From positions 66,330 to 130,329 of the forward strand of contig CASGAD010000014.1 in the NCBI GenBank assembly GCA_949299335.1: a stretch of 64,000 bases of DNA. Direction: 5' to 3'. This stretch comes from an uncultured bacterium. Lineage in GTDB: Bacteria > Bacillota_I > Bacilli_A > RFN20 > CAG-826. The notes under the pieces were generated by a model that did no database searches, had not been told where the DNA came from, and saw only the letters and a program-made list of their open reading frames with translations. The position numbers and the translations under genes were made by a program. Below, piece by piece: positions 4,202 through 58,385 of this stretch (within the stretch, counting starts at the first letter, position 1; each line of letters opens with the position of its first letter).

Positions 4202-4223
4202 TCTAAATTTGAATTCTAAATCA

Positions 4224-4250
4224 AGTCTCTCTAGCCAGAGACTTTTTTAT
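4224..4250 (+). terminator. Rho-independent terminator after rpmF
   Basis: Stem AGTCTCT (4224-4230) pairs with AGAGACT (4237-4243), followed by TTTTTT. Confidence 0.7.
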
Positions 4251-4280: not shown

Positions 4281-4289
4281 TGCTAAAAT
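4281..4289 (+). promoter_or_regulatory. Extended -10 (TGcTAAAAT) placed for a leaderless transcript of the oxidoreductase gene
   Basis: TGCTAAAAT ends at 4289 and the A of the ATG is at 4296, 7 nt downstream. No SD lies between them. Confidence 0.4.
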
Positions 4290-4295
4290 ATCACC

Positions 4296-5273
4296 ATGAA
4301 TTTAGGTTTTTTAGGTTGTTCTAAAATCGGAATAAAAATTATTGAGGCACTAAAATCAATTCCTGAAGTGGTTTTATATGGTTGTAGTGCGCAAGATTCT
4401 ATTAGAGCAAAAGAATATAAAGAAAAATATGGTTTTCTTAAAAGCTACGAATCATATGAAGAAATGTTAAACGATCCTAATATTGAATTAGTTTATGTTT
4501 CTACATTAATGAGTACTCACTATAAAGATGTTTTGATGTGTCTAAAGCATAATAAAAGTGTAATAGTAGAAAAAGCTTTTACAATGAATGCCAAAGAAGC
4601 AGATGAGCTATGTTATTATAGTGAAAAACATAATATTTATCTTGGTGAAGCTATTTGGACTAGATATATGCCTAGTAAAGCTATTATTAATAAACTTATT
4701 AAAGATGGCGTTATAGGGGAAGTTTATCATGTTGACGCTAATTTATCATATTCTTTAAAAAATGTTAAAAGATTGACCACTAAAGAGCTTGGTGGAGGTA
4801 TTTTACTTGATGTAGGAGTTTACCCTATTAACTTTTTAACAATGTTTTTTGGCTATGATTTTAAACTTATTAATAGCGTTATGGTCATGAACAAGGAATT
4901 TAATGTTGATGAAAGTGTAATGATAAATGTAGTCTATAAAAACGGATTGACGGCCTCTTTATTTGCTTCAATGAACGGAGTTACTTCTAAAAAAGGAATT
5001 ATTTATGGAAGTAAAGGTTATTTAGAAATTGATGATATAAATAATCCTCATAAGGTTTCTATTTTCGATACATTCAATAAAAGATCACCTGAACTTAGTA
5101 AAGTAATTGAATTTGAAAAGCAGGTGAATGGTTATGAATATGAATTTATAGAAACAATTGAAAATGTTAAAAATCATCAAATTGAGCCAAATTCAATGCT
5201 TCATAGTGAAACATTAAAAATTATGAAAATCATTGATGAAATCAATGAAAAATCGATAAAAGTATATAAGTAG
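4296..5273 (+). CDS. Gfo/Idh/MocA-family NAD(P)-dependent oxidoreductase
   Basis: N-terminal Rossmann pattern LGFLGCSKIG, EKA(F) motif VIVEKAF, typical length of about 325 aa. Confidence 0.8.
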   Translation: MNLGFLGCSKIGIKIIEALKSIPEVVLYGCSAQDSIRAKEYKEKYGFLKSYESYEEMLNDPNIELVYVSTLMSTHYKDVLMCLKHNKSVIVEKAFTMNAKEADELCYYSEKHNIYLGEAIWTRYMPSKAIINKLIKDGVIGEVYHVDANLSYSLKNVKRLTTKELGGGILLDVGVYPINFLTMFFGYDFKLINSVMVMNKEFNVDESVMINVVYKNGLTASLFASMNGVTSKKGIIYGSKGYLEIDDINNPHKVSIFDTFNKRSPELSKVIEFEKQVNGYEYEFIETIENVKNHQIEPNSMLHSETLKIMKIIDEINEKSIKVYK

Positions 5274-5308
5274 TTATTTTATAGTAATTAATTAGTATTA
5301 AATTAGTA
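5260..5308 (+). repeat. Phased TAGTA array 1 (period 11 bp), fills the gap between the oxidoreductase gene and deoC
   Basis: Perfect TAGTA at 5282, 5293 and 5304. Degenerate AAGTA at 5260 and TAGTT at 5271; the latter contains the TAG stop. Confidence 0.7.
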
Positions 5309-5322
5309 GTTAGGAGGAAAAT

Positions 5323-5958
5323 ATGAACTACAATAAATATATTGATAACACTCTTTTAAGAGCTGATGCTACATTAGCTGAGATTAAAGGTTTATGTGAA
5401 GAAAGCATTAAGTATGATTTTAAGTCCTGCTGCATTAATCCAGCTTATATAAAGGCAACAAAAGAATTTTTAAAAGGAAGCAATGTCTTAGTTTGCACAG
5501 TCATCGGATTCCCACTTGGTAGCATGACTACTGAAGCAAAAGTTTTTGAAACTAAAGATGCTTTAGAAAAAGGCGCCGATGAAATTGATATGGTCATTAA
5601 TGTTAGTAGATTAAAAGATCATGATGATGATTATGTCTATAACGAAATAAAAGCTATCAAAGAAGTTTGTGGAAAGCATATTTTAAAAGTAATTATCGAA
5701 ACTTGCTTATTAACCGATGAAGAAAAAGTTAGAGTTTGCAAATTAGCTAAAAAAGCAGGTGCTGATTTTGTTAAAACAAGTACTGGCTTCTCAAAATGGG
5801 GAGCAAAAGCAGAAGATGTTAAATTAATGAGAGAAACTGTTGGTCCAGATATGGGTGTTAAGGCTTCTGGTGGAGTCAGAACACACGAAGAAATGATGGA
5901 AATGATCGAAGCTGGAGCAACAAGAATTGGAACAAGTAAAGGTTCCGCATTAATGTAA
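5323..5958 (+). CDS. deoC: Deoxyribose-phosphate aldolase
   Basis: Motifs IDMVIN and FVKTSTGF (Schiff-base Lys) and KASGGVR. Strong SD AGGAGG. Confidence 0.92.
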
Positions 5959-7539: not shown

Positions 7540-7548
7540 TGCTAAAAT
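7540..7548 (+). promoter_or_regulatory. Extended -10 (TGcTAAAAT) placed for a leaderless ybeY transcript
   Basis: TGCTAAAAT ends at 7548 and the ATG is at 7555, the same 7-nt spacing as at 4289/4296. No SD. Confidence 0.4.
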
Positions 7549-7554
7549 AAATGC

Positions 7555-8004
7555 ATGAATTTAGATTTTAATAGCGAAATATCACAAGATGTAAGTGAAT
7601 TCGAACCTTTATATAATAGGTTATTAGAAAAAACATTAGTCATGTTAAATAAGTCAACTAATTGTTTAATGAGCGTTACTTTCGTTAATAAAGAGCAAAT
7701 TCATGAAATCAATAAGATTTATCGAAATATTGATAGGCCTACTGATGTTATAAGTTTTGCTTTTTTGGATGACGAAAACGAGAAAAATATTAAAGGAGAC
7801 TTTCCATTAGATTTAGGTGAAATTTACATTTGTTATGAAGTAGCAGATGAAAACCGTAAATCTTACGGCAATAGTTTAAAAAGAGAATTAGCTTTCCTTT
7901 TCGTCCATGGACTATTACATTTGCTTGGATATGATCATATGACTAAAGAAGACGAAGAGGTCATGTTTCCTCTTCAAGAAAAGATATTAGAAGGAGAACT
8001 TTAA
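7555..8004 (+). CDS. ybeY: rRNA maturation endoribonuclease YbeY
   Basis: Metal-binding motif HGLLHLLGYDH. About 150 aa. Confidence 0.92.
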   Translation: MNLDFNSEISQDVSEFEPLYNRLLEKTLVMLNKSTNCLMSVTFVNKEQIHEINKIYRNIDRPTDVISFAFLDDENEKNIKGDFPLDLGEIYICYEVADENRKSYGNSLKRELAFLFVHGLLHLLGYDHMTKEDEEVMFPLQEKILEGEL

Positions 8005-8409: not shown

Positions 8410-9282
8410 ATGAAGAGTGGATTTGTCTGTTTAGTTGGTCGTTCCAATGTCGGAAAATCAACTATTTTGAATCGTATTATCGGAAAAAAGGTTTCAATCG
8501 TTTCTCCTAAATCTCAAACCACAAGAAATTCTATTCAAGGAATTTATAATGATGAAGATTCTCAAATAATTTTCGTTGATACTCCAGGAATTCATAAACC
8601 TAAGAATGCTTTAGGCGAAACAATGGATAAAATTTCATATTCTTCAATTAGAGATTGCGATTTAGCTATTTTTGTTGTGGATGCTAGTAAGCCTTTTAAT
8701 GAAGGTGACCAATATCTTTTTGATCATTTAAAATTTGATTGCAATGTAATAATTGTTTTAAACAAAATTGATGAAACTAATGTTGAATTAGTAAATGACT
8801 TAAAAAATAGATATGTTGAGCAATATCATCCAGTAGAAGTTGTACAGACTTGTGCTTTTGATGGTTTTGGTATTAAAGATTTAATAGGAGCAATTAAAAA
8901 GAACCTTGATGAAGGTCCTCAATATTATGATGTATCTACAACAACCAATAGAGATTTAGCCTTTAGAATTCAAGAAATTATAAGAGAAAAAATGCTAACT
9001 TTATTAAGAGAAGAAGTTCCTCATTCATCAACAGTTGTATGCGAAAAAATTGATGATGAAGAGTATCCATTAACAATATACGCTAAAATAATCGTTGAAA
9101 AAGATAGTCAAAAAGGAATAGTAATTGGTTCTAGAGGAATAATGATTCGTAAGATTGGAACATATGCTAGACAAGATATTGAAGCTATGCTAGGAAAACA
9201 TATAAATTTACAATTAAACGTACAAGTAGTAGAAAACTGGAGAAATTCTAGTAGATTTTTAGTAAGAAATGGCTTTAATTAA
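8410..9282 (+). CDS. era: GTPase Era
   Basis: G1 motif GRSNVGKST, DTPG, NKID, C-terminal KH domain. Start chosen at ATG 8410 (MKSGFV), 1 nt after the cdd stop, rather than 8365. Confidence 0.92.
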   Translation: MKSGFVCLVGRSNVGKSTILNRIIGKKVSIVSPKSQTTRNSIQGIYNDEDSQIIFVDTPGIHKPKNALGETMDKISYSSIRDCDLAIFVVDASKPFNEGDQYLFDHLKFDCNVIIVLNKIDETNVELVNDLKNRYVEQYHPVEVVQTCAFDGFGIKDLIGAIKKNLDEGPQYYDVSTTTNRDLAFRIQEIIREKMLTLLREEVPHSSTVVCEKIDDEEYPLTIYAKIIVEKDSQKGIVIGSRGIMIRKIGTYARQDIEAMLGKHINLQLNVQVVENWRNSSRFLVRNGFN

Positions 9283-16107: not shown

Positions 16108-16978
16108 AGTAGTTATAAATATCATTTACAACATTTTGATGAACACTCCCATCAGAAACTAATAATATACGTTTCTCAGATGGGATTTTAATTTGCATAG
16201 CGTCTTTTACATCTTTAACAACGGCATAAAGTATATTTTTAGTAGTTAAGTGGTAGTATTCTAGTAGATATTTGTCATATGATGTAGTATCTGTAATGAA
16301 TATAATGACATCATTATCCTTTAAGTTTTCTTCTAAATTCTTTTTTCTATCGAAGTTTTCATCACTTATTTCATCCTCAATAACAGCATTAGGAAGTAAC
16401 TTACGAAGATAATCTAGGGAGCTATCAAAACTAGAACCAGCAAGTTCAGTTTGATATAAAATATGTGTTTTTGATTTATTGAATTTCTTTTCAGTAATAA
16501 CTGATTTAGCCTTTGCAGCATCATTTACATCATAAAATATAAAACTGAATTTTGATTCATTAGTAAGATAGTTTGCTTCTATTGTATTTGTATTACCAAC
16601 AAAAATAATATTGTATTTTCCTTTAGAATTATTGATAAAATCTAATTTTTTCTTAACATTAGGCGATAGCGTTTCAAAAAATCTAAAATGTTCTTTCTTT
16701 AAAACATTGATAGTTTCATGATCACAGCCATAAGGAGAAGTTAAAACGATTGTATCGTTATTTAAATTCTTTAAAAAATCACTAAAGCCCATTGAAGGAA
16801 TATCGACTACATCAATTCCTAATTGCTTTAATTCTTTTTTAATTGCGTTGGCATTTAATAATCCGCCTAAAAGAATGATTTTCTCATTTGGAAAGTCAAA
16901 ACGTGTTTTTCTAGCTATATTTAGTAAGTTTTCCATTGCTGGAGAATAACCAGCTGGAAGTATTAATGTTGTATCCAT
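16061..16978 (-). CDS. IspH/LytB-like protein that lacks the three [4Fe-4S] cysteine ligands (degenerate paralogue or pseudoenzyme)
   Basis: Collinear with remembered IspH motifs along its whole length: PAGYSPAMENL vs PRGFCAGVDRA, ETLSPNVKK vs DATCPLVTK, EISDENFDRK vs DICYATTNRQ, QTE vs QTT, SDGS vs AGAS. It occupies the position and opposite orientation of B. subtilis ispH (yqfP) next to yqfO. Confidence 0.55.
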   Translation of the reverse strand: MDTTLILPAGYSPAMENLLNIARKTRFDFPNEKIILLGGLLNANAIKKELKQLGIDVVDIPSMGFSDFLKNLNNDTIVLTSPYGCDHETINVLKKEHFRFFETLSPNVKKKLDFINNSKGKYNIIFVGNTNTIEANYLTNESKFSFIFYDVNDAAKAKSVITEKKFNKSKTHILYQTELAGSSFDSSLDYLRKLLPNAVIEDEISDENFDRKKNLEENLKDNDVIIFITDTTSYDKYLLEYYHLTTKNILYAVVKDVKDAMQIKIPSEKRILLVSDGSVHQNVVNDIYNYFTYKSLWETVPDIRK

Positions 16979-17036
16979 GGTAATATTTTAACATTTATAA
17001 TGAAAAAATCATCCAAATTATATAAAATTAGAAACT

Positions 17037-22271: not shown

Positions 22272-22305
22272 AATAAATTCATATATGTTGAAAAGTTTTC
22301 CACAT

Positions 22306-22343
22306 TACTAATAAACTACTAAATTTCTACTAGTTTTCTACTT
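22306..22343 (-). repeat. Phased TAGTA array 2 (period 11 bp), starting at the plsY stop
   Basis: Plus-strand TACTA at 22306, 22317 and 22328. TACTT at 22339 overlaps the TAG stop of plsY. Confidence 0.7.
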
Positions 22344-23333: not shown

Positions 23334-25265
23334 ATGGGAAATTATAGTGCGAGTAACATAGAATTACTTTCTGGTTTAGCAGGGGTTAGAAAAAGACCAG
23401 CTATGTATATTGGTAGCACCAATTCATACGGTCTCCATCATTTAGTGTGGGAAATTGTCGATAATTCAGTTGATGAAGCATTAAATGGTTTTGGAAATAA
23501 AATCACTGTTACCATTCATAAGGATAATTCAGTTACAGTTCAAGATGAAGGTAGAGGGATACCTTGTGATATACATAAGCAAACAAAAATTCCTGCTGTT
23601 CAATTAATTTTCTCAACTTTGCATAGTGGAGGAAAATTTAATGATTCAGCTTATAAATCCAGTGCTGGATTGCATGGTGTTGGTAGTAGTGTCACTAACG
23701 CACTAAGTGTTTTTTGTGACATCACTGTTTATAAAGATGGAAAAATTAATCATTTAAGATTTGAAAATGGTGGAAATTTAAAAGTACCACTTGAAGTTTT
23801 AGGCAATACCACAAAACATGGTACAACCGTTACTTTTAAACCTGATCCTACTATTTTTTCAACTGTTGAGTTCAATTATGATAGAATCGCTGACCATTTA
23901 AGAGAGTCTGCTTTCCTTTTAAAGAAAGTACGTTTCATTTTAATTGATGAAAGAAGCGGTAATAAAGATGAATTCTATTATGAAAATGGCTTAAAAGAAT
24001 ATGTCGAAGAAATTAATCAAAATAAGACCAAAATGGGTGATGTTTTTGATTTTGAAGATACAGTTAGTCAAATTGATTGCGAAATAGCTCTTCAATATTG
24101 CTATAACGACTATAACGAAACTATCAGAAGTTATGTTAATAATGTCCATACTAAAGATGGTGGAACCCATGAAGTCGGTTTTAAAATCGGTATTACTAAG
24201 GCAGTAAATGATTATGCTGAAAATAATAATCTTCTTAGAGGCAAAGCTAAGCTTGAAGGAAGCGATATTCGCGAAGGCTTAACAGCTGTTATTTCTTTAA
24301 GACTTCCTGAATCAATTCTTGAATTTGAAGGTCAAACAAAAGGCAAATTAGGTACTCAATTAGCACAAAATGTTGTAAGTAACCTTGTTTATACTAAATT
24401 TTCATATTATTTAGCTGAAAATAAAGAATTCGCTGTTCGTTTAATTAAAAAATGCCAAGATTCAATGAATGCTAGAATTGCAGCAAGAAAAGCTAAAGAA
24501 GAAGCTAGAACTAAGAAAAAGTCTAAAGAATCAATAATTTTAAGTGATAAATTAACTCCTGCTCAAAGTAAAGAATATGATAAAAACGAATTATTTATCG
24601 TTGAAGGTGATTCCGCTGGAGGAACCGCAAAAAAAGGTAGAAATCCAAAATATCAGGCTATTTTACCTTTAAGAGGCAAACCATTGAATACTGACAGTTT
24701 AACAATGGAAAAAATTCTCCAAAACCAAGAGTTCGCAACAATTATTAACACTATTGGAGCTGGAGTAGGACAAAATTTTGATGTAAGTGAATCTCATTAT
24801 GGGAAAATCATTATCATGACTGATGCTGATACTGATGGAGCTCACATTCAAACGTTACTTTTAACTTTCTTCTATAACAATATGCGTTCTTTAATTACTG
24901 AAGGACATGTTTATGTTGCTGTTCCACCTTTATATCGTATTTATAAAACTGATAGCAAAGGAAAAACCACTGAAGTTTATGCCTGGAATGATGCAGATTT
25001 AGAGGAAGGGAAGAAAAAAATTGGCGCCGGATATAAAATATCTCGTTATAAAGGTCTAGGTGAAATGAGTGATAAGCAATTAAAAGAAACCACTATGGAT
25101 CCTAAAAATAGATTGCTTGTTCAAATTAAGATTGATGACCCATTAAGTGTTGAAAATAAAGTTGCTATTTTAATGGGCAAAGATTCAGATAAACGTAAAA
25201 AATGGCTTGAACAAAATGTCGATTTTAATGAAGTTGATAAATTCATTGAGGAGGTTAAACACTAA
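23334..25265 (+). CDS. parE: DNA topoisomerase IV subunit B (type IIA topoisomerase ATPase subunit)
   Basis: GHKL ATPase motifs, EGDSAGG, PLRGK, TOPRIM motif MTDADTDG. Called ParE rather than GyrB from the plsY-parE-parC synteny. Confidence 0.85.
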   Translation: MGNYSASNIELLSGLAGVRKRPAMYIGSTNSYGLHHLVWEIVDNSVDEALNGFGNKITVTIHKDNSVTVQDEGRGIPCDIHKQTKIPAVQLIFSTLHSGGKFNDSAYKSSAGLHGVGSSVTNALSVFCDITVYKDGKINHLRFENGGNLKVPLEVLGNTTKHGTTVTFKPDPTIFSTVEFNYDRIADHLRESAFLLKKVRFILIDERSGNKDEFYYENGLKEYVEEINQNKTKMGDVFDFEDTVSQIDCEIALQYCYNDYNETIRSYVNNVHTKDGGTHEVGFKIGITKAVNDYAENNNLLRGKAKLEGSDIREGLTAVISLRLPESILEFEGQTKGKLGTQLAQNVVSNLVYTKFSYYLAENKEFAVRLIKKCQDSMNARIAARKAKEEARTKKKSKESIILSDKLTPAQSKEYDKNELFIVEGDSAGGTAKKGRNPKYQAILPLRGKPLNTDSLTMEKILQNQEFATIINTIGAGVGQNFDVSESHYGKIIIMTDADTDGAHIQTLLLTFFYNNMRSLITEGHVYVAVPPLYRIYKTDSKGKTTEVYAWNDADLEEGKKKIGAGYKISRYKGLGEMSDKQLKETTMDPKNRLLVQIKIDDPLSVENKVAILMGKDSDKRKKWLEQNVDFNEVDKFIEEVKH

Positions 25266-27946
25266 TGGCTGCAAGAAATAAACCAGTTGAAGAAGAAATT
25301 GTAGAAAATATTAGCGTTGAATCCCTTGATGGAGTCATGGGTGATAGATATGCTATCTACGCAAAATATGTTATTCAAGATAGAGCCATCCCAGATGTTA
25401 GAGATGGTTTAAAGCCAGTTCAACGTAGAATAATTTTTAGTATGTATCAAAATGGTAATACATACGATAAGCCAACAAAAAAATGTGCAAAGATTGTTGG
25501 TGATGTTATGGGTAGATTCCATCCTCATGGAGATACTTCAATTTATGATGCTTTAGTTAGACTATCTCAAAGCTGGAAAATGAGTATGCCATTAGTAACT
25601 TTCCAAGGTAATAATGGTTCAATTGATAATGACCCAGCTGCTGCATACCGTTATACTGAAGCAAAATTAAATGAATTTAGTGAAACTCTTATTAATGACA
25701 TCGAAAAGAATACGGTCGATATGACTTTAAATTTTGATGATACAGAATTTGAGCCTGTTGTTTTGCCTTGTAGATACCCTAATTTATTTGTAAATGGCAG
25801 TGAAGGTATTGCTGTTGCTATCGCTACAGAAATTCCACCTCATAATTTAACTGAAATTTGCGAAGCTGCTATTCATTACATTCAACATCCAAAGTGTTCT
25901 TTAGATGATCTTTTAGAGATTGTTAAAGGGCCTGATTTTCCTACTGGTGGCGTAATTTATGAATGTCAAGGCATAAGGGACATTTATGAAACCGGTAGAG
26001 GAAAAATCGAAATTGCTAGTAAAGTTACAATCGATGACTCTAATAAGAACTATAACGAATTAGTTATTAGTGAAATTCCTTATGGAGTAGTTAAGCAAAA
26101 CCTTGCTTATCAAATCGATAAGATTAAAAAGAGCCATGAAATTGATGGAATTAATGAAGTTAGAGATCTTTCAAGTGGTGATGAAATTAAAATTTGTGTT
26201 GAACTTAAAAAGGAAGTTGATCCTAATATTGTTCTCGCTTATTTGATGAGTAAAACTCAATTAAAAGTATCCTATAGCTCTAATATTGTTGCTATTTGTG
26301 ATAATCATCCTAGAACTTTAGGCCTTTTATCATATTTAGATTATTACACTAAATATCAAATCGATGTTATCACTAGAAAGTTTAATTTTGATTTAAAGAA
26401 AGCTAAAGATAGACTTCATATTGTTGAAGGTTTAATTAAGTCGGTAAGTATTATTAATGAAATCATTGCTATTATTAGAAAAAGTGCTGATAAAGCTGAT
26501 TCAAAGAAAAACTTAATGAATGCCTATGGATTTAGTGAAATTCAAGCTGAAGCCATCGTTACAATGAGATTATATAAACTCTCCAATACAGATGTAAGAA
26601 TCTATGTTGAAGAAAAAGCAGAGTTAGAGAAGACAATTGCTTATTTAGAAGAAACTTTAGCTGATGAAAATAAAATAAGAAAAGTTATCGTTAATGATTT
26701 AAAAGCAATCATTAAGAAATTTGGAATCCCTAGAAGAACAGTCATCGAAACTAAAAAAGATGAAATTCAAATTGATAAGCGTGATTTGATTGTTAAGGAA
26801 GATGTTTACGTGGTTGTTACTAAGGATGGCTATGTAAAAAGAAGTTCTTTAAAGAGTTACAAATCTAGTAATGGGGCTCTTCCTGGAGTTAAGCAAAATG
26901 ATGTAGTTATCATGAATCAAATTGTAAATACTGCTGATTATATCTTAGCTTTTACTAATAAAGGGAATTATATTATCATGCCTGTCCATGAGATATTAGA
27001 AGGTAAGTGGAAAGATGAAGGTAAACACATTAATTATATGTGTAATCTTCCATTACAAGAATCATTAATTAGGTGTATTGTTGTTAAAAACTTTGAAGCA
27101 CCAGCATGTATCGCTATTGTTACAAAGAATTCACAAGTTAAGAAAACCTTATTAAGTGATTTTTACACTACTAGAACATCTAAACCAGTTTGTTGTATGC
27201 GTCTTACAGGTAATGATGAAGTTGCCGATGTTGCAGTGCTCTATGGAAATAGCAATATTTATTTATCTACTGAATCAGGAAGATCAACAACTTACTTTAA
27301 TGAAAATGCTTTCGAACCTACAAAACTTAAAACTTGTGGTGTTAAGGGCATTTCGACCTTGAGTAAGAGCACAATTTCTAGAATGCTAACCTATCGACCA
27401 GGTGAAAAGAGCAAATTAGTCATCGTAACAGATAAAGGATTTGTTAAGATTGCTGATTCTAGTAACTTTGTTTTAACTGATAGATTAGGAAGAACCGGAA
27501 CAATTCTTGAGTCGTTTAAAACTTCACCTCATTTAATGAGATGTTGCTTTAAATTAAAAGGTAAACCAACTGAGCTTACTATTCATTGCTTAATGAAGAG
27601 TGGAGAAATGAAAGATTTCACTATTAAAGATTTCTATTTAACTCCTCAAGATAAACATTGTATAACCAATTTAGAAGGATTTAATAAGGAAAAAGATGTA
27701 ATTGAATACATCTATAACGATGAAGCAGAGGTAATTGAAGCAAATGTTAAAGCTGATGCTCCTATAAAAATGCCTTCTGAAACACCTACCTTAATAAAAA
27801 GTTCACCAAAATCTCAAGAAAATGATATCTTCTACAGTTCAGATAAAAAACAAACTATCAAAATAGTGAAAATTGATGATTCTTCAGAAGAACCAGAAGA
27901 AGAAAATTATGAACAAATCTCCATTTTTGATGAAATGGGTGATTAA
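25265..27946 (+). CDS. parC: DNA topoisomerase IV subunit A, with a roughly 90-aa Ser/Glu-rich C-terminal tail
   Basis: DGLKPVQRR, HPHGD, AAAYRYTE (catalytic Tyr). The ATG overlaps the parE stop. Confidence 0.85.
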   Translation: MAARNKPVEEEIVENISVESLDGVMGDRYAIYAKYVIQDRAIPDVRDGLKPVQRRIIFSMYQNGNTYDKPTKKCAKIVGDVMGRFHPHGDTSIYDALVRLSQSWKMSMPLVTFQGNNGSIDNDPAAAYRYTEAKLNEFSETLINDIEKNTVDMTLNFDDTEFEPVVLPCRYPNLFVNGSEGIAVAIATEIPPHNLTEICEAAIHYIQHPKCSLDDLLEIVKGPDFPTGGVIYECQGIRDIYETGRGKIEIASKVTIDDSNKNYNELVISEIPYGVVKQNLAYQIDKIKKSHEIDGINEVRDLSSGDEIKICVELKKEVDPNIVLAYLMSKTQLKVSYSSNIVAICDNHPRTLGLLSYLDYYTKYQIDVITRKFNFDLKKAKDRLHIVEGLIKSVSIINEIIAIIRKSADKADSKKNLMNAYGFSEIQAEAIVTMRLYKLSNTDVRIYVEEKAELEKTIAYLEETLADENKIRKVIVNDLKAIIKKFGIPRRTVIETKKDEIQIDKRDLIVKEDVYVVVTKDGYVKRSSLKSYKSSNGALPGVKQNDVVIMNQIVNTADYILAFTNKGNYIIMPVHEILEGKWKDEGKHINYMCNLPLQESLIRCIVVKNFEAPACIAIVTKNSQVKKTLLSDFYTTRTSKPVCCMRLTGNDEVADVAVLYGNSNIYLSTESGRSTTYFNENAFEPTKLKTCGVKGISTLSKSTISRMLTYRPGEKSKLVIVTDKGFVKIADSSNFVLTDRLGRTGTILESFKTSPHLMRCCFKLKGKPTELTIHCLMKSGEMKDFTIKDFYLTPQDKHCITNLEGFNKEKDVIEYIYNDEAEVIEANVKADAPIKMPSETPTLIKSSPKSQENDIFYSSDKKQTIKIVKIDDSSEEPEEENYEQISIFDEMGD

Positions 27947-28233: not shown

Positions 28234-28271
28234 TAGTAAATAATTAGTAGTTTATAAGTACTAAATTAGTA
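28234..28271 (+). repeat. Phased TAGTA array 3 (period 11 bp) in the divergent gap upstream of yqeG
   Basis: TAGTA at 28234, 28245 and 28267. AAGTA at 28256. Confidence 0.7.
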
Positions 28272-28359
28272 GTATTCATGGATTTTTGTTTAACTAAAAC
28301 CTATTTAAAAACTTGATCTAATTTTGATTGATTTACTTTAAATAACAATACCAAAAATG

Positions 28360-28365
28360 TAAAAT
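28360..28365 (+). promoter_or_regulatory. -10 box TAAAAT placed for a leaderless yqeG transcript
   Basis: TAAAAT ends at 28365 and the ATG is at 28372 (7 nt). No SD. Confidence 0.35.
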
Positions 28366-28371
28366 ATATGT

Positions 28372-28893
28372 ATGTGGAAAAAATTCGTTCCTTTTGCTTT
28401 AGCTGAAAACATTTATGAGATAGAACCTGACTTTTATAAGAAGTATGGTATAGATACTATAATATGTGATTTAGACAATACTTTAGATGCTTATTATGTT
28501 CTTACTCCATCAAATGAAGCGACTAAATTAATTAAGACGCTAAAAGATAATGGCTTTAGAGTAATAATAATCTCGAATAACACAAATAGTAGAGTCGAAA
28601 AATACGCTAAAGATATAAATTGCGAATATGTTTCACTAGCTAGAAAGCCTTTTAGAGCTAAATCAAGAAAGTTTATTAAGCATAATAATATTGATATTAA
28701 AAAGGCAATTTGTATAGGTGATCAAGTGTTTACTGATGTATTATTTGCTAATCGAATGAAAATGAAATGCATATTATGTAATAATTTAGTAGAGAAAGAT
28801 CAATTCTTTACCAAAATAAATAAATTCTTTGATAAACATTTTAGAAAAAGAGTTTTAAAGAAAAAATTAGCGAAAAACTGGAGGGACATGTAA
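28372..28893 (+). CDS. YqeG-family HAD-IIIA phosphatase
   Basis: DLDNTL, ISNN and GDQVFTDV motifs. First gene of the yqeG-rsfS cluster. Confidence 0.85.
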   Translation: MWKKFVPFALAENIYEIEPDFYKKYGIDTIICDLDNTLDAYYVLTPSNEATKLIKTLKDNGFRVIIISNNTNSRVEKYAKDINCEYVSLARKPFRAKSRKFIKHNNIDIKKAICIGDQVFTDVLFANRMKMKCILCNNLVEKDQFFTKINKFFDKHFRKRVLKKKLAKNWRDM

Positions 28894-31421: not shown

Positions 31422-31449
31422 ACTTCGTATAATATCTATTATGTAATTT
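31422..31449. other. dif: dif-like Xer recombination site (chromosome dimer resolution)
   Basis: ACTTCGTATAA-TATCTA-TTATGTAATTT has the 11-6-11 layout. It matches the remembered B. subtilis dif at 23/28 positions. It lies in the convergent strand-switch gap. Confidence 0.65.
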
Positions 31450-31529: not shown

Positions 31530-31567
31530 TACTAATAAACTACTAGTTATTTACTAATTTGATACTA
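31530..31567 (-). repeat. Phased TAGTA array 4 (period 11 bp), four perfect units, starting at the stop of the 183-aa ORF
   Basis: Plus-strand TACTA at 31530, 31541, 31552 and 31563. The 18-mer ATTACTAATAAACTACTA (31528-31545) is identical to 22304-22321. Confidence 0.75.
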
Positions 31568-32116
31568 ACAAGAATATAATTTTGTATAATTATTTTTAAT
31601 TTCATCATATTTAAAGTTTAAATTAATTATATTAGAAATAAAATCTCTATAACAATTTAAGATCTTTAAAACAGTATTTTTATTTAAAAATGCGCACGGT
31701 CTAGCATCTTTAATTTTGCCATTTTCTAACTTAAATAAGTCTTTGTGAACAATCTGAATGTTTTGAATTTGAGCATAATATTCATTATCTAAAGATAAAG
31801 AATGAATTATACCTAAGTTAATACCATCTTCGCCATCAAAATAGCATTCATACTTAGTTTTAATAGGGCAAATAAGGACACTATTTTCGTATTCTCCACT
31901 ACTTTTAATAACCACCACTTTAATTGATTTTGCTTCTTTTTTATCATAGTAGCAATTATAGATTTCACCGATTAAAAAGGCTTTTTTGTCTCTATTAAAC
32001 AAGTAATTAGTTGTATATGATAAGGTGGTATTTGCCCGTTCTAATTGCCTAGTTAAAGCATTATTTTTGTCAGATTTAACAAAATATATGTTTTTTTCTT
32101 TAATTTGACTATCCAT
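31565..32116 (-). CDS. Hypothetical protein, weak PemK/MazF-like pattern
   Basis: Good SD AAGGAGAG. GEIY...KVVVI...VLICPIKTK...AQIQNIQIVHKDLF resembles the toxin pattern GD[IV]Y..RP.VV..v.v.PiT..dQirtvdk.Rl. The similarity is weak. Confidence 0.5.
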   Translation of the reverse strand: MDSQIKEKNIYFVKSDKNNALTRQLERANTTLSYTTNYLFNRDKKAFLIGEIYNCYYDKKEAKSIKVVVIKSSGEYENSVLICPIKTKYECYFDGEDGINLGIIHSLSLDNEYYAQIQNIQIVHKDLFKLENGKIKDARPCAFLNKNTVLKILNCYRDFISNIINLNFKYDEIKNNYTKLYSC

Positions 32117-32164: not shown

Positions 32165-32938
32165 CTATTTTTGCAATTTTCTTTTAATTGGATACAAAAT
32201 TAAATCAATAATAATGAATACGATTATAACTAAAATTACAATCGCGAACATACTAGCATAATCAGAATCGTTTCTATAGACGTATATTAGTCGGCCAATT
32301 CCCCATAATGAGGAAGAATTAAGCAAAATTTCACTCATAATTGATACTTTTATGCCTAAAGCTATAGAATTTGTTGCTCCTAGAAGCAAAAAAGGAAAGG
32401 TTTCAGGTAAAATTACCTTAAAAAATGATTTTGGCTTATAATAGCCTTCTAAACGCAAAGACATTTGAATTGATTCACTTAAATTGTCATGCCCTGCAAT
32501 AAATGATTCATACATAATTGGAAAAATTACTATAAAAGTAACTATAAATGAACCAATCTCAAGATCTTTAAAGAAAAATAAAAAAATTATATAGACCACG
32601 CATGGAGTAGGAACTAATTTCATTAAATTAATTAAAGGAGAAATAAAATATCTAAATCCTTTAAAGTACCCTGCAATCGATCCTAATATAAAAGCTAATA
32701 AAAATGAAGCTATTAAAGAGACGAAAGTTCTTAAAAAAGAATAGCCAAAGGCAGAATATGTCGATACATTTCTTAATGACTCAAATAATGCATTAAATAA
32801 ATGGTTTAAATCAGGGAAAATTAAATTATCATTTATAATTAAAGCAATAATTTCATATAAAATTACAATGAAAAAAATTCCTAATATTTCTAGTAGGAAT
32901 TTTTTATTCTTCTTTATGAATGAGCCAATTCCTTTCAT
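32165..32938 (-). CDS. ABC transporter permease (binding-protein-dependent, NitT/TauT-like)
   Basis: Six TM helices. EAA-like loop LSESIQMSLRLEGYYKPKSFFKVILPETFP. Confidence 0.75.
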   Translation of the reverse strand: MKGIGSFIKKNKKFLLEILGIFFIVILYEIIALIINDNLIFPDLNHLFNALFESLRNVSTYSAFGYSFLRTFVSLIASFLLAFILGSIAGYFKGFRYFISPLINLMKLVPTPCVVYIIFLFFFKDLEIGSFIVTFIVIFPIMYESFIAGHDNLSESIQMSLRLEGYYKPKSFFKVILPETFPFLLLGATNSIALGIKVSIMSEILLNSSSLWGIGRLIYVYRNDSDYASMFAIVILVIIVFIIIDLILYPIKRKLQK

Positions 32939-32955
32939 AAAGTATATTTTATAAT

Positions 32956-33930
32956 TTATTTTGCTAATAAACTATTAAAAGAAGTAATTTCTTCAGTTGT
33001 GAAAGTAACATCGTTTGGAACTATACCAAAACCATTTTTACTTCCATCATTCCCTTGTACCCCTTCTAAAACGCTTGAACTAAAGCCAAAATTAGCAGAA
33101 ATGACGGTATCATCGTTATTATAGGTCTCTAATAACTCAGTTTTAACGGCTCCTGGATTTGATAATGCTTGAGAAATTGAAGCGTTTATTGATTCAAGGA
33201 CGTACTTATAAACTTCACTATTTGAAGAAATATCATTTCTTACAAATAAACCTGCTTGAGGAATATAATCTTTGCTCCAAGTGGTCACTTCTTTAATCTT
33301 AGTTTGTAAATTGATATCTAAAATTTTAATACCTTTTTTTGTTAAATTTGATTTAATTGCGGTAGCGGCTGGTTCAGCAACAACAGCATAATCAACTTGA
33401 GTGCCGTCAATTTTATAATCAGCGGTCATTGTGAGTAATTTATCTTTTAAACTACTAATAGAATCTAAATACACATCACATCCACCTGCATCTTTATAAA
33501 CAGTTTTAAATAGTAAATCTGGAGTGTTATTTTCTTGGAATCCATAAACTACATCATCTTGACTAATAGTTAATGAATCAGCATCACTTTCATCTTTATT
33601 AAAAGCAAATAGATGGAAATTGCCCCCAGTAATCATTTTTACAAACGAATATTTTGCTTCATCACCTTGTTTTTCTAATTTCGCAAGTGCTTTAGCACTA
33701 TCAAAAATAATAAATGGATAATCACCTTTACTTAATTGAGCTGGAATATTGCTTGAATCTGCTAAAACATCTACTTTTCCTTCTTCAATTAACTTATAAG
33801 TGCCTAATGTTGGTGCTCCACTAGGCATTAATAAATATTTGTCATAATCATCAGTTGTTTCTTTACTACATGATGATGCTAATAAAGCAATACATAAAAA
33901 ACTGCTTAATTTTAATAAATTAAATTTCAT
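32956..33930 (-). CDS. ABC transporter substrate-binding lipoprotein
   Basis: Signal peptide with lipobox LLASSC. About 300-aa periplasmic-binding-like domain. Adjacent to the permease. Confidence 0.65.
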   Translation of the reverse strand: MKFNLLKLSSFLCIALLASSCSKETTDDYDKYLLMPSGAPTLGTYKLIEEGKVDVLADSSNIPAQLSKGDYPFIIFDSAKALAKLEKQGDEAKYSFVKMITGGNFHLFAFNKDESDADSLTISQDDVVYGFQENNTPDLLFKTVYKDAGGCDVYLDSISSLKDKLLTMTADYKIDGTQVDYAVVAEPAATAIKSNLTKKGIKILDINLQTKIKEVTTWSKDYIPQAGLFVRNDISSNSEVYKYVLESINASISQALSNPGAVKTELLETYNNDDTVISANFGFSSSVLEGVQGNDGSKNGFGIVPNDVTFTTEEITSFNSLLAK

Positions 33931-35202: not shown

Positions 35203-36087
35203 TTATTCATCTTTCCAGAACAAATCATACGCCTCTTTTAACTTTTTTTCACTTAAATGTGTGTATATTTGTGTTGTTGAAACTTTTGCGTGTCCTAACA
35301 TTTCCTGGACTGACCTAATTTCTGCCCCATTTTCTAACAAATGAGTAGCAAAAGAATGACGGAGAGTATGTGGATGGATTGATTTTTTAATATTAGCTTT
35401 AGTGGCTAACCTTTTCACAATTAAATAAACCCTTTGTCTAGTAAAATCCTCTCCATGTTCATTAATCATTAATTTTTTTGAATGATTAATATCACGTTTA
35501 TTACGGACATATTTTATGTATTGCTTAATAGCAAATAAAGCTTCTTCTTTAATTGGAATGATCCTTTCAATATCACCCTTTCCAAGAATCTTAACTAGTC
35601 TATCTTCTTCATTAATGTCTTTTAACTTTAAATTAACGAGTTCAGAAACTCTTAATCCACAATAATAGAGTAAATCAATGATTACTTTTTCTTCTAAACC
35701 ATCACTTGTAGTTAAATCAGGAGCATTTAATAATTCTTTAATCTCGTCTTGAGTTAAATAAGTAGGTAATAGTTTTTCCTTTTTTATTCTTTCAACAGGC
35801 CCGCTAATTAAATTATGTTTTATATCTTCTTTTTCTAAAAATATATAAAAATTTTTAATGGTTGATATTCTTCTTTCTATTGAGCTAGCTTTTAATGAGT
35901 CTAATGACATTTTAAAACTAAATTCGATTAGTAAATTCTCATTTAAATCATTTACTTCTTCTAGATAAGGAAAATATTTCAAAAAGCATTTAAAGTCGTC
36001 TTTATAATCAATTAAGGTTATGTTTGATAAACCCTTTTCAAACTGGAGATAATAAAAGTATTTATCCAATGCTTCGTTTAATTTCAT
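35203..36087 (-). CDS. xerD: Tyrosine recombinase, XerC/XerD family
   Basis: RVSEL...HPHTLRHSFATHLLENGAEIRSVQEMLGH...TQIYTH catalytic motifs. 3.8 kb from the dif-like site. The C-versus-D assignment is tentative. Confidence 0.8.
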   Translation of the reverse strand: MKLNEALDKYFYYLQFEKGLSNITLIDYKDDFKCFLKYFPYLEEVNDLNENLLIEFSFKMSLDSLKASSIERRISTIKNFYIFLEKEDIKHNLISGPVERIKKEKLLPTYLTQDEIKELLNAPDLTTSDGLEEKVIIDLLYYCGLRVSELVNLKLKDINEEDRLVKILGKGDIERIIPIKEEALFAIKQYIKYVRNKRDINHSKKLMINEHGEDFTRQRVYLIVKRLATKANIKKSIHPHTLRHSFATHLLENGAEIRSVQEMLGHAKVSTTQIYTHLSEKKLKEAYDLFWKDE

Positions 36088-37291: not shown

Positions 37292-37329
37292 TACTAAATA
37301 ACTACTAGTTATATACTAATTATTTACTT
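37292..37329 (-). repeat. Phased TAGTA array 5 (period 11 bp), fills the xseB-dinB gap
   Basis: Plus-strand TACTA at 37292, 37303 and 37314. TACTT at 37325 overlaps the xseB TAA stop. Confidence 0.7.
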
Positions 37330-55796: not shown

Positions 55797-58385
55797 CTAA
55801 ATGTTTTTTAATTTTTCTAAAATTTGGTTAAGTTTACTCTTATAGTTTTCGTATTTTTCTTTTTCAAGATCAATTTTAACTTTTGGAGCTTTTTCAACGA
55901 AGTTTGGATTATTCAATAAACCCTCACTTCTTTTAATTTCAAATTGAACTTGAGCCAAATCCTTCTCTAATCTAGCTTTCATCTCATTTTTATTAATTAA
56001 GTCTTTAACAAACAATGTTAAGTTATCAAGAATAATACTGGTAACACCTTTAATGTTTTCTTTAGTAGTAACTAAAGATTTAGCAAAGCTAAATCTAGCA
56101 ATATAAGGATAAATATCTTCTACATCTAAATTTGTTTTAATATAAAGTTCTAATGGTGCGTTTGGAGCTAATTCATTTTTAACCTTATATTCTCTTAATT
56201 TTTCAATTGCAGCTTTTAATATATCTCCCTTTTTAAGTGAATCTTCAAAGATATATTCATTTTCAAAATCAGGATAAGATTCAAGCATGATAGACTCTTT
56301 ATGATCTGGTAAAGCTAAATAAATCTCTTCTGCAATAAATGGCGAGAATGGATAAATCATCATAATTATTGCTTTTAAAGCTTTAATTAATACAAAATAA
56401 GTTCCTTCTTTATATGCTTTTTCATCTTTTAAAGTAACTTTTGTCATTTCTAGATAAAATGAACAGAAATCATCATAAACAAAATTATATAAATTTGTAC
56501 TAGCAACACCATATTCATATGAATCCATGGCTTTAGTTACATTCTTAATAGTATCTTCTAATCTAGTGAGAATGTATTTATCAATTGTTTCAAGTTTATT
56601 TAAATTTATTTCACCTTGAGAATAGTTTTCAGGCAAATTCATAAGAATATATCGGGCACTGTTCCAAATTTTATTTAAATAATTATTAGCGGATTTAACT
56701 TTTTCTTCGCTATAACGCATATCTAAGCCTGGAGATGCAGTTGTTGCTAAGAAATATCTTAAGCTATCGACACCATAATTATTAATTACATCTATTGGAT
56801 CAATACCATTTCCTAATGATTTTGACATTTTTCTTACTTGAGAATCTCTTACAATTCCATGAATTATGACATTCTTAAATGGAACATTCTTTGTAAAATA
56901 TAGTCCTTGGAAAACCATTCTTGCTACCCAGAAGAAGATAATATCGTATCCAGTGACCATACAATCTAAAGGATAATAACGTTTAAAATCATCTGTATTA
57001 TCTGGCCAACCTAATGTTTCAAAAGGCCATAAAGCGCTTGAGAACCAAGTATCTAAAACATCTTCATCTTGGGTCCGATTTTCCATATCAGTAGGTTTTT
57101 GGGCAGAAACTAGTATTTCATTAGTAGTTTTATGGTAATAAACAGGAATCCTATGACCCCACCATAGTTGTCTTGAGACACACCAGTCATCACATTTTTC
57201 CATCCATTGCTCTAAAACTTTTTCAAATCTTTCTGGGAAAAATTTAATTTTATCTTTTGAAGCTTGTTGATCTAAGACAAGTTGAGCAAGAGGTTTCATT
57301 TTTACAAACCATTGTAATGAAAGAATAGGTTCTACTACAGCATCACTTCTTTCGCTGTGTCCAACTTGGTGTTTAATGTTTTCAATCTTAATCAAATTGC
57401 CTTCTTCTTTAATAGTCTTCACTAATAAATCTCTACAAGCAAATCTATCCATACCAGCGTATTTACCACAATTTTCTTTCATAGTGCCATCAACATTCAT
57501 AATAATTGGATGTGGTAAATTGTATTTTTGACCAATAATCCAGTCATTAGGATCATGAGCTGGGGTACATTTCATTGCGCCAGTACCAAATTGAATATCA
57601 ACATATTCATCTGCAATAACAGGAATTTCCTCATGGTTAGCTGGATTTATAACTTTTTTGCCAACTACATCTTTATATCTTTCATCATTCGGATTAACAA
57701 CAATGCAAGTATCACCAAACATTGTTTCAGGTCTAGTTGTAGCAATTGTTAAAAACTTTGAAGGATTATCTACAAAAGGGTATTTAAAGTAGAAAAATTG
57801 GCCTTCATCTTCTTTATATATAACTTCAATATTACTTAAAGCAGTTTTCATGACTGGATCATAGTTAACAATTTTTTGTCCTCTATAAATAAGTCCTTTA
57901 TTATATAAAGTAACAAAAACTTTGTTAACAGCTTTTGAACAACCAGCATCCAAGGTGAATCTTTCACGAGTATAATCGACCATTATGCCCATTTTCGCCC
58001 ATTGTTCATGAATTTTAGAAGTATATTCTTCTTTCCATTCATAAGCACGTTTCATGAATTCTTCTCTACCTATGATAAATCTTGAAGTTCCTTCACTAGC
58101 AAGTTTAGCATCTACTTTTGCTTGAGTAGCAATTCCAGCATGGTCAACACCTGGTAAAAATAATACATCAAAGCCTTTAGCTTTTTTATATCTACAAGTA
58201 ATATCTTGAATAGTGTTATCGATTGAGTGACCTATATGAAGCTTACCTGTAACGTTTGGTGGAGGAATAACCATAGAAAATTTTTGCTTTGATTTGTCTC
58301 CAGCTGTAAAATAACCAGCTTTCTTCCAAATTTCGTATCTTCCAGCTTCCACTTCTTTAAAATCGTATTTTTTGTCAAGTGCCAT
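55797..58385 (-). CDS. valS: Valine--tRNA ligase
   Basis: HIGH (LHIGH) and KMSKS motifs, C-terminal coiled coil. 862 aa. Confidence 0.95.
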   Translation of the reverse strand: MALDKKYDFKEVEAGRYEIWKKAGYFTAGDKSKQKFSMVIPPPNVTGKLHIGHSIDNTIQDITCRYKKAKGFDVLFLPGVDHAGIATQAKVDAKLASEGTSRFIIGREEFMKRAYEWKEEYTSKIHEQWAKMGIMVDYTRERFTLDAGCSKAVNKVFVTLYNKGLIYRGQKIVNYDPVMKTALSNIEVIYKEDEGQFFYFKYPFVDNPSKFLTIATTRPETMFGDTCIVVNPNDERYKDVVGKKVINPANHEEIPVIADEYVDIQFGTGAMKCTPAHDPNDWIIGQKYNLPHPIIMNVDGTMKENCGKYAGMDRFACRDLLVKTIKEEGNLIKIENIKHQVGHSERSDAVVEPILSLQWFVKMKPLAQLVLDQQASKDKIKFFPERFEKVLEQWMEKCDDWCVSRQLWWGHRIPVYYHKTTNEILVSAQKPTDMENRTQDEDVLDTWFSSALWPFETLGWPDNTDDFKRYYPLDCMVTGYDIIFFWVARMVFQGLYFTKNVPFKNVIIHGIVRDSQVRKMSKSLGNGIDPIDVINNYGVDSLRYFLATTASPGLDMRYSEEKVKSANNYLNKIWNSARYILMNLPENYSQGEINLNKLETIDKYILTRLEDTIKNVTKAMDSYEYGVASTNLYNFVYDDFCSFYLEMTKVTLKDEKAYKEGTYFVLIKALKAIIMMIYPFSPFIAEEIYLALPDHKESIMLESYPDFENEYIFEDSLKKGDILKAAIEKLREYKVKNELAPNAPLELYIKTNLDVEDIYPYIARFSFAKSLVTTKENIKGVTSIILDNLTLFVKDLINKNEMKARLEKDLAQVQFEIKRSEGLLNNPNFVEKAPKVKIDLEKEKYENYKSKLNQILEKLKNI

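Follow-up and report, generated by a model that had tools for sequence, protein, structure and literature searches.

Phased TAGTA arrays with an 11-bp period at gene ends and around a dif-like site in uncultured Bacilli

Operators of the OmpR/PhoB/ArcA type (pho boxes, ArcA boxes) are 11-bp direct repeats, each with a core of ~7 bp and an A/T-rich segment of ~4 bp, and the protein occupies two to five or more of them head-to-tail along one face of the helix. FtsK/SpoIIIE orienting sequences (KOPS/SRS) are polar sites around the terminus and dif. TRAP and HutP are ring oligomers that read UAG-containing RNA repeats, some of which overlap translation starts, and REP/BIME elements are dispersed, extragenic and transcribed, located after stop codons and between the genes of operons. 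The TAACTGA heptamer direct repeats of Beggiatoaceae and Cyanobacteria are abundant, lineage-restricted, intergenic and forward; they lie a few nt 5' of starts that lack a Shine-Dalgarno sequence, contain stops in all frames, precede genes without a common function, and have been proposed to play a role in translation (MacGregor 2015, PMC4679880). In the fork traps RTP-Ter of Bacillus and Tus-ter of E. coli, the gene of the binder adjoins a site and the polar sites form two opposed groups (PMC10331603). Here we describe a family of arrays of the pentamer TAGTA, with their phasing, conservation, polarity and positions, in a 64,000-nt stretch of DNA from an uncultured bacterium (GTDB lineage Bacilli_A, RFN20, CAG-826; assembly GCA_949299335.1, contig CASGAD010000014.1, positions 66,330 to 130,329), hereafter the window, and in related loci. 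Our literature search on TAGTA/UAGUA repeats and 11-bp pentanucleotide repeats found no description of the motif, and the family is apparently undescribed.

Array 1 (5260-5308, + strand) comprised five in-phase units with a period of 11: AAGTA at 5260, TAGTT at 5271, and TAGTA at 5282, 5293 and 5304, separated in turn by TATAAG, ATTTTA, ATTAAT and TTAAAT. On its 5' side was an open reading frame (ORF) for a GFO/IDH/MocA oxidoreductase (4296-5273, +, identified by Pfam), the TAG stop codon of which (5271-5273, +) is the first three bases of unit 2. On its 3' side was the deoC ORF for deoxyribose-phosphate aldolase (5323-5958, +, identified by Pfam DeoC and homologs): the last unit was followed by GTT, the AGGAGG Shine-Dalgarno sequence of deoC (5312-5317, +, thus 3 nt past the last unit), AAAAT, and the ATG at 5323. 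When the sequence was re-read, the coordinates, units, stop codon and 3-nt distance given in a preliminary description proved exact, and the array does occupy everything between the stop of the oxidoreductase gene and the ribosome-binding site of deoC. Tandem Repeats Finder also detected the array, again with a period of 11.

Array 1 was one member of a family within the window (~28% G+C). The pattern TAGTA-N6-TAGTA occurred 13 times, compared to 0.25 in dinucleotide-preserving shuffles, and a three-unit pattern with up to two mismatches 18 times, compared to 0.54. TAGTA ranked first of all 1024 pentamers for same-strand pairs at 11 nt (13 vs ~0.34 expected, ~38x); the next-ranked pentamers were pure A/T words at less than 3x expectation. 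The distances between TAGTA copies peaked at 11, 22 and 33 nt only, with zero pairs at 9, 10, 12 and 13. An array of AAGTA plus three TAGTA units followed plsY (22306-22343, -), with the stop codon overlapping unit 1, and was itself followed by ATGTGGAAAAC and a terminator hairpin. Another was located 5' of a yqeG-like operon (28234-28271, +), 100 nt ahead of a leaderless-type promoter and ATG. Four perfect units, the best array of the window, followed the gene for a 183-aa protein with a predicted MazF-like fold (31530-31567, -), the first TAG being the stop codon of that gene, at 126 nt from the dif-like site described below. The gap between xseB and dinB was filled by an array (37292-37329, -) that stopped 5 nt short of the dinB ATG, a start without a Shine-Dalgarno sequence.

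Relatives were sampled by a DinB-based scan of metagenome contigs and by a pattern scan of genomes. Both scans together yielded at least 41-45 distinct arrays in low-G+C relatives; arrays were conserved in genera of roughly 0.24-0.42 G+C and were kept across genera with only 45-70% DinB identity. The genes followed by arrays were xseB, plsY, deoB (in L131 and L176), dxs, recN, lepA, hemW, dnaK, the MazF-fold gene, and parC-like, yqeK-like, clpB-like and Sir2-like genes. Arrays after xseB were found in many genera, the next gene being dinB, dxs or recN, and the genes downstream of arrays were unrelated housekeeping genes. The consensus unit was y-TAGTA-n-WWWW, with seven specified bases and four that are strictly A/T, at a period of exactly 11 and with 3-8 units per array. 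In a position matrix of 128 internal units, the pentamer was nearly invariant (T1 0.90, A2 1.0, G3 0.98, T4 0.99, A5 0.94), position 6 accepted any base (46% G+C), position 7 was 8% G+C, positions 8-10 were 0-2% G+C, and position 11 was T (0.71) or C (0.16). The centre of the A/T-only block lay 5-6 bp from the conserved G. At orthologous sites, pentamer columns were 91-94% identical, as compared to 55-58% for spacers and 41-45% expected from composition. Selection thus keeps the pentamers, their phase and the A/T character of the spacers, not the letters of the spacers; and because spacers diverge while pentamers and phase stay, the family is distinct from slippage repeats.

The arrays were also polar with respect to the chromosome. 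A dif-like Xer recombination site, ACTTCGTATAATATCTATTATGTAATTT (31422-31449, +), was located at a change in sign of the GC skew, which flips at ~32 kb where genes converge; it matches 23 of 28 positions of what we take to be the B. subtilis dif sequence. With this site at the skew flip and gene convergence, and with a XerC/D-type recombinase gene (35203-36087, -) and topoisomerase IV-like genes of the parE and parC type (23334-27946, +) nearby, the replication terminus lies within the window. A dif core of the form T(T/A)ACATAAT-N6-TTAT(G/A)CGAAGT was present in ~45 related loci, and 30 of the 31 distinct arrays with a locatable dif pointed toward it. The exception was the plsY array, the sole array in the window to point away. 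One array was always located 112-170 nt from dif, whether the gene upstream of it was the MazF-fold gene or deoB. The order at this dif-proximal site was array, A-TGTGGA(A/T)AA (a DnaA-box-like motif), weak hairpin and dif in most of 18 aligned lineages, up to 0.42 G+C, and the distance from the last unit to TGTGG(AWAA) was either 18-21 or 29-31 nt, two classes one helical turn apart. A DnaA-box-like motif of this kind, TGTGGAAAA, was located 1 nt past the plsY array (22296-22304, -) and also followed the dif-proximal array in many relatives. Within the window, arrays occupied four of six intergenic gaps no more than 10 kb from dif and one of 17 elsewhere (p = 0.008, for a radius picked post hoc). 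Among the matches listed from an unbiased genome scan, three of six site types fell in the region syntenic with the window.

The layout of units and the polarity of arrays can be read at the level of DNA or of RNA. An A/T-only block half a turn from the conserved G, together with the strict 11-bp period, fits recognition of B-DNA from one face. Our tentative preference is for arrays as polar, one-face platforms for a protein on double-stranded DNA, with a role related to the terminus, a possible reading that we place ahead of the RNA-level one by a small margin. Spacing is strictly 11 bp throughout the window, and stays so at orthologous sites where spacers have diverged almost to saturation; array polarity and density are centred on dif; the last unit keeps a helical-phase relation to TGTGGAWAA, a motif of the double-stranded-DNA type; and some copies lie outside sensible transcripts. 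These last include an array antisense to genes, 5' of the ftsA promoter, in L073 and L108, a plsY-UPF0154 array-plus-box module in L229 that is inverted relative to the window and lies between two convergent terminators, and units that in L036 and L131 continue past the T-tract of a terminator hairpin.

If arrays are DNA platforms, an oligomeric protein would dock on them cooperatively, head-to-tail, on one face of the double helix, contacting the major groove at each A-G-T and, half a turn on, facing a minor groove that is narrow and A/T. The TAGTA strand runs with the flanking genes and toward dif. As polar arrays are densest around the terminus, the complex would most likely serve a direction-dependent chromosomal function, perhaps by blocking or guiding a machine of replication, translocation or Xer recombination in a polar way, or by insulating transcription units from each other. 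RNA polymerase, at 5260-5308, would traverse the array in the direction common to nearly all arrays, and any effect on deoC would be a side effect rather than the purpose.

Several observations weigh against this DNA-level reading. Orientation toward dif is confounded with gene orientation, since genes converge on dif, and with orthologs collapsed there were ~7 sites toward dif and 1 away (p = 0.07). The sole lagging-strand gene of the window with a free 3' end, plsY, carries its array in gene sense and away from dif. All of the loci sampled correspond by synteny to a single region of the chromosome. The 13-65 nt between array and promoter are not the distances of classical activator sites, and the starts that arrays abut include those of essential genes without a Shine-Dalgarno sequence, dxs for one. 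At eight of 11 independent sites with 50-290 nt of free spacer, the first unit was no more than 10 nt from the upstream stop, a result matched by none of 200,000 random placements; frequently, the first unit itself supplies the stop codon of the upstream gene. To accommodate this abutment of stops and starts, a DNA model must invoke genome compaction along with the occurrence of TAG in all three frames of three units. Finally, no binder was identified. Two of these points can be qualified. The remainder of 11 divided by 3 is 2, such that three units put TAG in all three frames and an array on the sense strand is an unavoidable ORF stop; the anchoring at stops needs caution because a three-unit sense array will stop any ORF running into it. 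Direct-repeat DNA operators can also abut a start codon, as genuine MraZ boxes in the same genomes do.

The strongest rival, which we consider doubtful, is a platform at the level of RNA: UAGUA repeats in 3' untranslated regions or between cistrons would be bound by an oligomeric RNA-binding or RNA-cleaving protein. In an extension that we hold equally doubtful, arrays would mark cistron boundaries, control mRNA processing or stability, and permit or regulate translation in the absence of a Shine-Dalgarno sequence; at deoC this would amount to post-transcriptional control beside its ribosome-binding site. TAGTA is on the sense strand of an adjacent gene at about 19 of 21 independent sites, and a role in RNA or translation predicts both the anchoring at stops, despite 50-290 nt of free DNA, and the abutment of starts more naturally than a DNA model does. 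Where an intrinsic terminator is present it is usually 3' of the array (plsY, L133, L184 and the dif-proximal site). The last unit closes 1-6 nt short of a start codon without a Shine-Dalgarno sequence in many genera, with no recognisable promoter between, at dinB (window, L127-L146), dxs (L008, L147, L155, L161, L162, L164) and yqeG (L127, L146); array and ATG are from -1 to 6 nt apart. Among other relatives, 50-65 nt lie between the xseB-proximal array and dinB, and include a clear leaderless-type promoter (TAnAAT, 6 nt, ATG). The array thus tracks the locus or the end of the preceding gene rather than the start of the gene that follows. The published TAACTGA repeats are similarly laid out, and a role in translation was proposed for them as well (PMC4679880).

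Other features of the arrays do not sit well with recognition as RNA. Known binders of RNA repeats need neither an exact 11-nt spacing nor a spacer core of A/U only. The inverted module in L229, the antisense array at ftsA and the units past T-tracts do not fit, and both the clustering near dif and the helical phase relative to TGTGGAWAA are left unexplained. Arrays were not especially unstructured (mean z = -1.0), and RNA structure provided no signal for or against. Inspection by eye for pairing with the 3' tail of 16S rRNA found no consistent register.

A possible link to RNA is offered by the lineage-restricted 183-aa protein with a predicted MazF/PemK-like fold (31568-32116, -). MazF proteins are sequence-specific endonucleases of single-stranded RNA that read motifs of 3-7 nt, which makes a lineage-specific MazF-fold family co-distributed with the arrays a candidate for an RNA-level role. 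The ORF ends in Cys-TAG, this TAG belonging to the first unit of the array at 31530-31567. The family comprised 24 representative clusters, and a homolog was present at the same dif-proximal position in 25 of 25 loci found by profile search. In every locus examined, the MazF-fold gene was followed by an array of 2-4 units and ended in the first TAG of that array. The orthologs, which include L127-L147 and L228-L230, are ~180 aa long, and most of the aligned members end in Cys and then TAG. Pfam, PDB sequence and profile searches returned no match to the protein. An AlphaFold2 model (predicted local distance difference test score, pLDDT, of 79) was compared to the PDB with Foldseek, and the best 50 matches were all MazF (probability 1.00, target-normalised TM-score 0.52-0.76). 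The SH3-like barrel of the model is of the MazF/Kid/CcdB type, to which a helix is added at the N-terminus and a helix plus hairpin at the C-terminus. A direct hhalign comparison of the protein to MazF was not significant (probability 0.2), which counts against the RNA-level use of this family, and no antitoxin-sized or small upstream partner gene was found adjoining the MazF-fold gene. The co-distribution of gene and arrays is confounded by phylogeny and synteny. The 183-aa protein may be put forward, speculatively, as a candidate reader of the arrays.

A more specific form of the DNA-level reading, which we consider unlikely, would make the arrays the cis sites of a new, lineage-specific, terminus-centred chromosome system, polar toward dif from both arms and read by the divergent MazF-fold protein or another oligomer; such a system could be a fork trap, a guide for a DNA translocase or Xer, or a boundary element. 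If true, polar control of the terminus would have evolved a third solution, independent of Tus-ter and RTP-Ter.

Passive punctuation, in which arrays need no factor at all, is improbable. Arrays would act as translation stops in three frames, with unstructured A/U-rich spacers permitting reinitiation at the next AUG. Three units do cover all frames (often as TAG-TAR), arrays supply the real stop of several genes, and the TAACTGA heptamer repeats have the same all-frame property. The conservation pattern is not that of a stop signal, however: it centres on A-G-T, with T1 (90%) below T4 (99%) and A5 (94%), and position 6 is a purine in just 57% of units, such that the second stop is often missing. 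Nor does such a role need an exact spacing or an A/T-only core, antisense and inter-terminator copies exist, and the better stop codon for an A/T-rich genome would be TAA, not TAG. As a complete explanation, the three-frame stop alone was ruled out by the conservation pattern of the 128 units.

Very improbable, and largely refuted by the distribution of arrays, is an operator or attenuator specific to deoC, worked by a regulator of nucleoside catabolism or by a leader mechanism. The preliminary description had implied a control element for deoC from the position of array 1, and its position adjoining the deoC ribosome-binding site is real, as is the presence of an array after deoB in two relatives. 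It also noted that no separate -35/-10 or terminator fits in the gap; this held, in that consensus scans gave no promoter-like or terminator-like site in the 49 nt among the matches listed. No terminator or attenuator hairpin with a U-tract was found within 5274-5322, and no alternative RNA structure at array 1, the RNA fold of which was weak and unremarkable (-11 kcal/mol, z = -1.7). Rfam gave no match at the gathering threshold across the window and none at E <= 1 in 5150-5450, ARAGORN found no tRNA, and the scanned genes of the window included no regulator. The wider locus consists, in order, of an intrinsic terminator after rpmF (4223-4244, +), which closes the preceding transcription unit, an extended -10 element TGCTAAAAT (4281-4289, +) 6 nt before the oxidoreductase ATG, which we read as the leaderless-type promoter of an oxidoreductase-deoC unit, the oxidoreductase gene, array 1, the Shine-Dalgarno sequence and deoC. 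Given this order, deoC is most likely co-transcribed through array 1.

The regions upstream of deoC were compared across relatives, a check that the preliminary description had proposed. The deoC homologs belong to metagenome-assembled genomes of uncultured Bacilli, Mollicutes or Erysipelotrichaceae. All six related loci with an oxidoreductase-deoC junction (L001-L004, L207, L210; DeoC identity 82-91%) carry an in-phase array of 4-5 units there, with differing spacers. In relatives without the oxidoreductase gene, no array was found 5' of deoC, the place being taken by the rpmF intrinsic terminator in L005/L006 and L208 and by a promoter-like stretch in L209. The array is therefore kept wherever the junction is kept and missing where the oxidoreductase gene is missing, which ties it to the 3' end of the gene before it and to the region of the chromosome rather than to deoC. 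As arrays of the same type also follow many unrelated housekeeping genes, the implied control of deoC was not supported: a dedicated deoC switch is unlikely, and an incidental effect of array 1 on deoC expression may occur.

Barely credible, finally, is a neutral slippage minisatellite or selfish mini-element, for although same-pattern scans of genomes and viruses return mostly perfect 11-bp tandem repeats in other phyla, spacers here differ within arrays and between orthologs, pentamers and phase are kept across genera, positions are syntenic, and the arrays have neither terminal repeats nor target duplications.

Some known classes of element were also considered as identities for the arrays and rejected. 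An array is not a leaderless promoter, given that positions -12 to -7 before array-abutting ATGs mismatch the clade pattern of TAnAAT, 6 nt and ATG and that the gap is variable. It is not a sigma-70 promoter, with no -35/-10 site in the gap among the matches listed. As a substitute terminator it fails at dxs, an essential gene that follows an array without a promoter, and several arrays are themselves followed by terminators. MraZ was rejected as the binder because true MraZ boxes differ in motif and period.

The four-unit scan of genome contigs mostly returned perfect 11-bp tandem repeats in Bacteroidota and others, unrelated to the TAGTA arrays, along with at least ~8 relevant loci. Elsewhere, the same pattern corresponded to perfect 11-bp tandem repeats in Bacteroidota, archaea and giant-virus bins; the scan of viral contigs found perfect tandem repeats alone, mostly in giant-virus bins. 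A separate Bacteroidales/Paludibacteraceae family, the 11-bp tandem repeat TAGTA(G/T)GT(G/T)AT, occurred in 4-8 units in many genomes (L010, L016, L017, L020, L025, L027, L037-L039, L042, L045, L047, L051, L057, L063, L065, L072 and others), the copies in L010, L020, L027 and L051 sharing a flank of the ..TTTAGCAT.. type. Its G+C content and the uniformity of its spacers mark it as unrelated to the TAGTA arrays.

Partial or weak relatives of the arrays were also observed within coding sequences. A possible partial array, of uncertain status, is located in the 3' coding end of era (9227-9264, +), with TAGTA at 9227, 9249 and 9260, that is, at offsets 0, 22 and 33; the phase lacks its unit at offset 11, where TAGTA would put a stop in frame. 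The same pattern was present in L001, L003, L207, L210 and L209, and recO starts 21 nt past the last era unit without a Shine-Dalgarno sequence. The era pattern could reflect codon usage, or else an array lying within the coding sequence. Weak phased TAGTA pairs of two perfect units each were found antisense inside ispH (16229-16266, +) and valS (57111-57137, +), and the phased pairs in coding sequences (antisense in ispH and valS, sense in era and a DEAD-box helicase gene) exceed the chance number of ~0.3 for the whole window.

The DnaA-box-like motif, in the form A-TGTGGA(A/T)AA-(C/G)T, recurred 3' of arrays at 22296-22304 (-) and 28373-28381 (+) in the window, at 351-359 in L008, and in L135, L138, L140, L141, L143, L147, L152, L156, L162, L171, L176, L188, L228 and L230. 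It was located 1-31 nt past the last perfect unit, or 100 nt past the array at the yqeG site of the window, and L188 carries a cluster of three such boxes. The box can alternatively be read as a mini-ORF starting MW(K/I)(T/S); its third-codon positions are invariant, which suggests a nucleic-acid motif rather than a peptide.

Other side observations concern promoters and terminators. A leaderless-type layout, (TG)nTAAAAT 6-7 nt before ATG with no Shine-Dalgarno sequence, was found at 4281-4298, 7540-7557, 16976-16995 (-), 28357-28374 and 32936-32960 (-); the TGnTAAAAT-6 nt-ATG layout of the oxidoreductase gene in particular is repeated at 7555, 16978 (-) and 28372. Judged from sequence, leaderless mRNAs seem common in this organism, and in relatives the same layout precedes dinB and ftsA. 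Ahead of the leaderless-type promoter of dinB, ~30-65 nt 5' of the gene, a conserved T(T/A)GTTAACATAATC was observed in L147, L149-L153, L155, L156 and L160-L162. It includes the TAACATAAT arm of the dif core and could be an operator or an Xer half-site. At L036:3408-3470 (-) and L131:8270-8330 (+), the first TAGTAG unit base-pairs with an inverted unit copy (CCTACTA or ACTACTAA) to make a terminator hairpin of A-tract, stem and T-tract.

If the arrays are protein platforms, they form an undescribed family of cis elements that punctuates the genomes of widespread, uncultured gut Bacilli with reduced genomes, sitting where translation stops and starts, the boundaries of transcription units, and the replication terminus and dif meet. 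Depending on which of the DNA-level and RNA-level readings is true, they would represent a new polar element of chromosome architecture or a post-transcriptional punctuation that aids translation without a Shine-Dalgarno sequence. Gene callers applied to this clade should expect stops supplied by arrays and genes that are leaderless or lack a Shine-Dalgarno sequence.

Compared to the described systems, the arrays share with OmpR/PhoB-type operators a spacing of 10-11 bp (here exactly 11) and, across the 128 units, a core with an A/T linker. They differ in motif (TAGTA, not TGTTA or CTGTCAT), in having no fixed distance to a promoter (13-65 nt), with many arrays at convergent gene ends or abutting an ATG, in their uniform orientation toward dif and along genes, and in having no linked response regulator. 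Classical MraZ operators, three AAGTGG repeats with a 10-bp period abutting the mraZ start, were observed in two of the related loci (L073:5090-5130, -; L108:4700-4740, -); like the arrays, they consist of three or more short direct repeats about one helical turn apart that abut a start, and a ring-shaped oligomer binds them, but the motif and period are AAGTGG and 10 bp rather than TAGTA and 11, which makes them a separate, second kind of direct-repeat operator within the clade. TRAP and HutP sites have spacers of 2-4 nt, as compared to 6 nt after a 5-nt core in the arrays, and belong to small regulons of metabolism that have leader terminators, and no protein of this kind was identified. REP/BIME elements are similarly dispersed and extragenic but form palindromic hairpins, whereas the arrays have no dyad symmetry. 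Fork traps and KOPS may resemble the arrays in polarity, 30 of 31 arrays pointing toward dif, though this is confounded with gene orientation and falls to 7:1 with orthologs collapsed (p = 0.07). No RTP or Tus homolog was seen in the window, and the arrays are phased pentamers, some of them inside operons, whereas the described sites are 23-30 bp long or G-rich 8-mers. Of published repeats, the TAACTGA family comes closest, and is alike in position and orientation at some array sites. Its heptamers are contiguous and identical, whereas TAGTA pentamers alternate with variable 6-nt spacers at an 11-nt period, are anchored at upstream stops, and cluster near dif.

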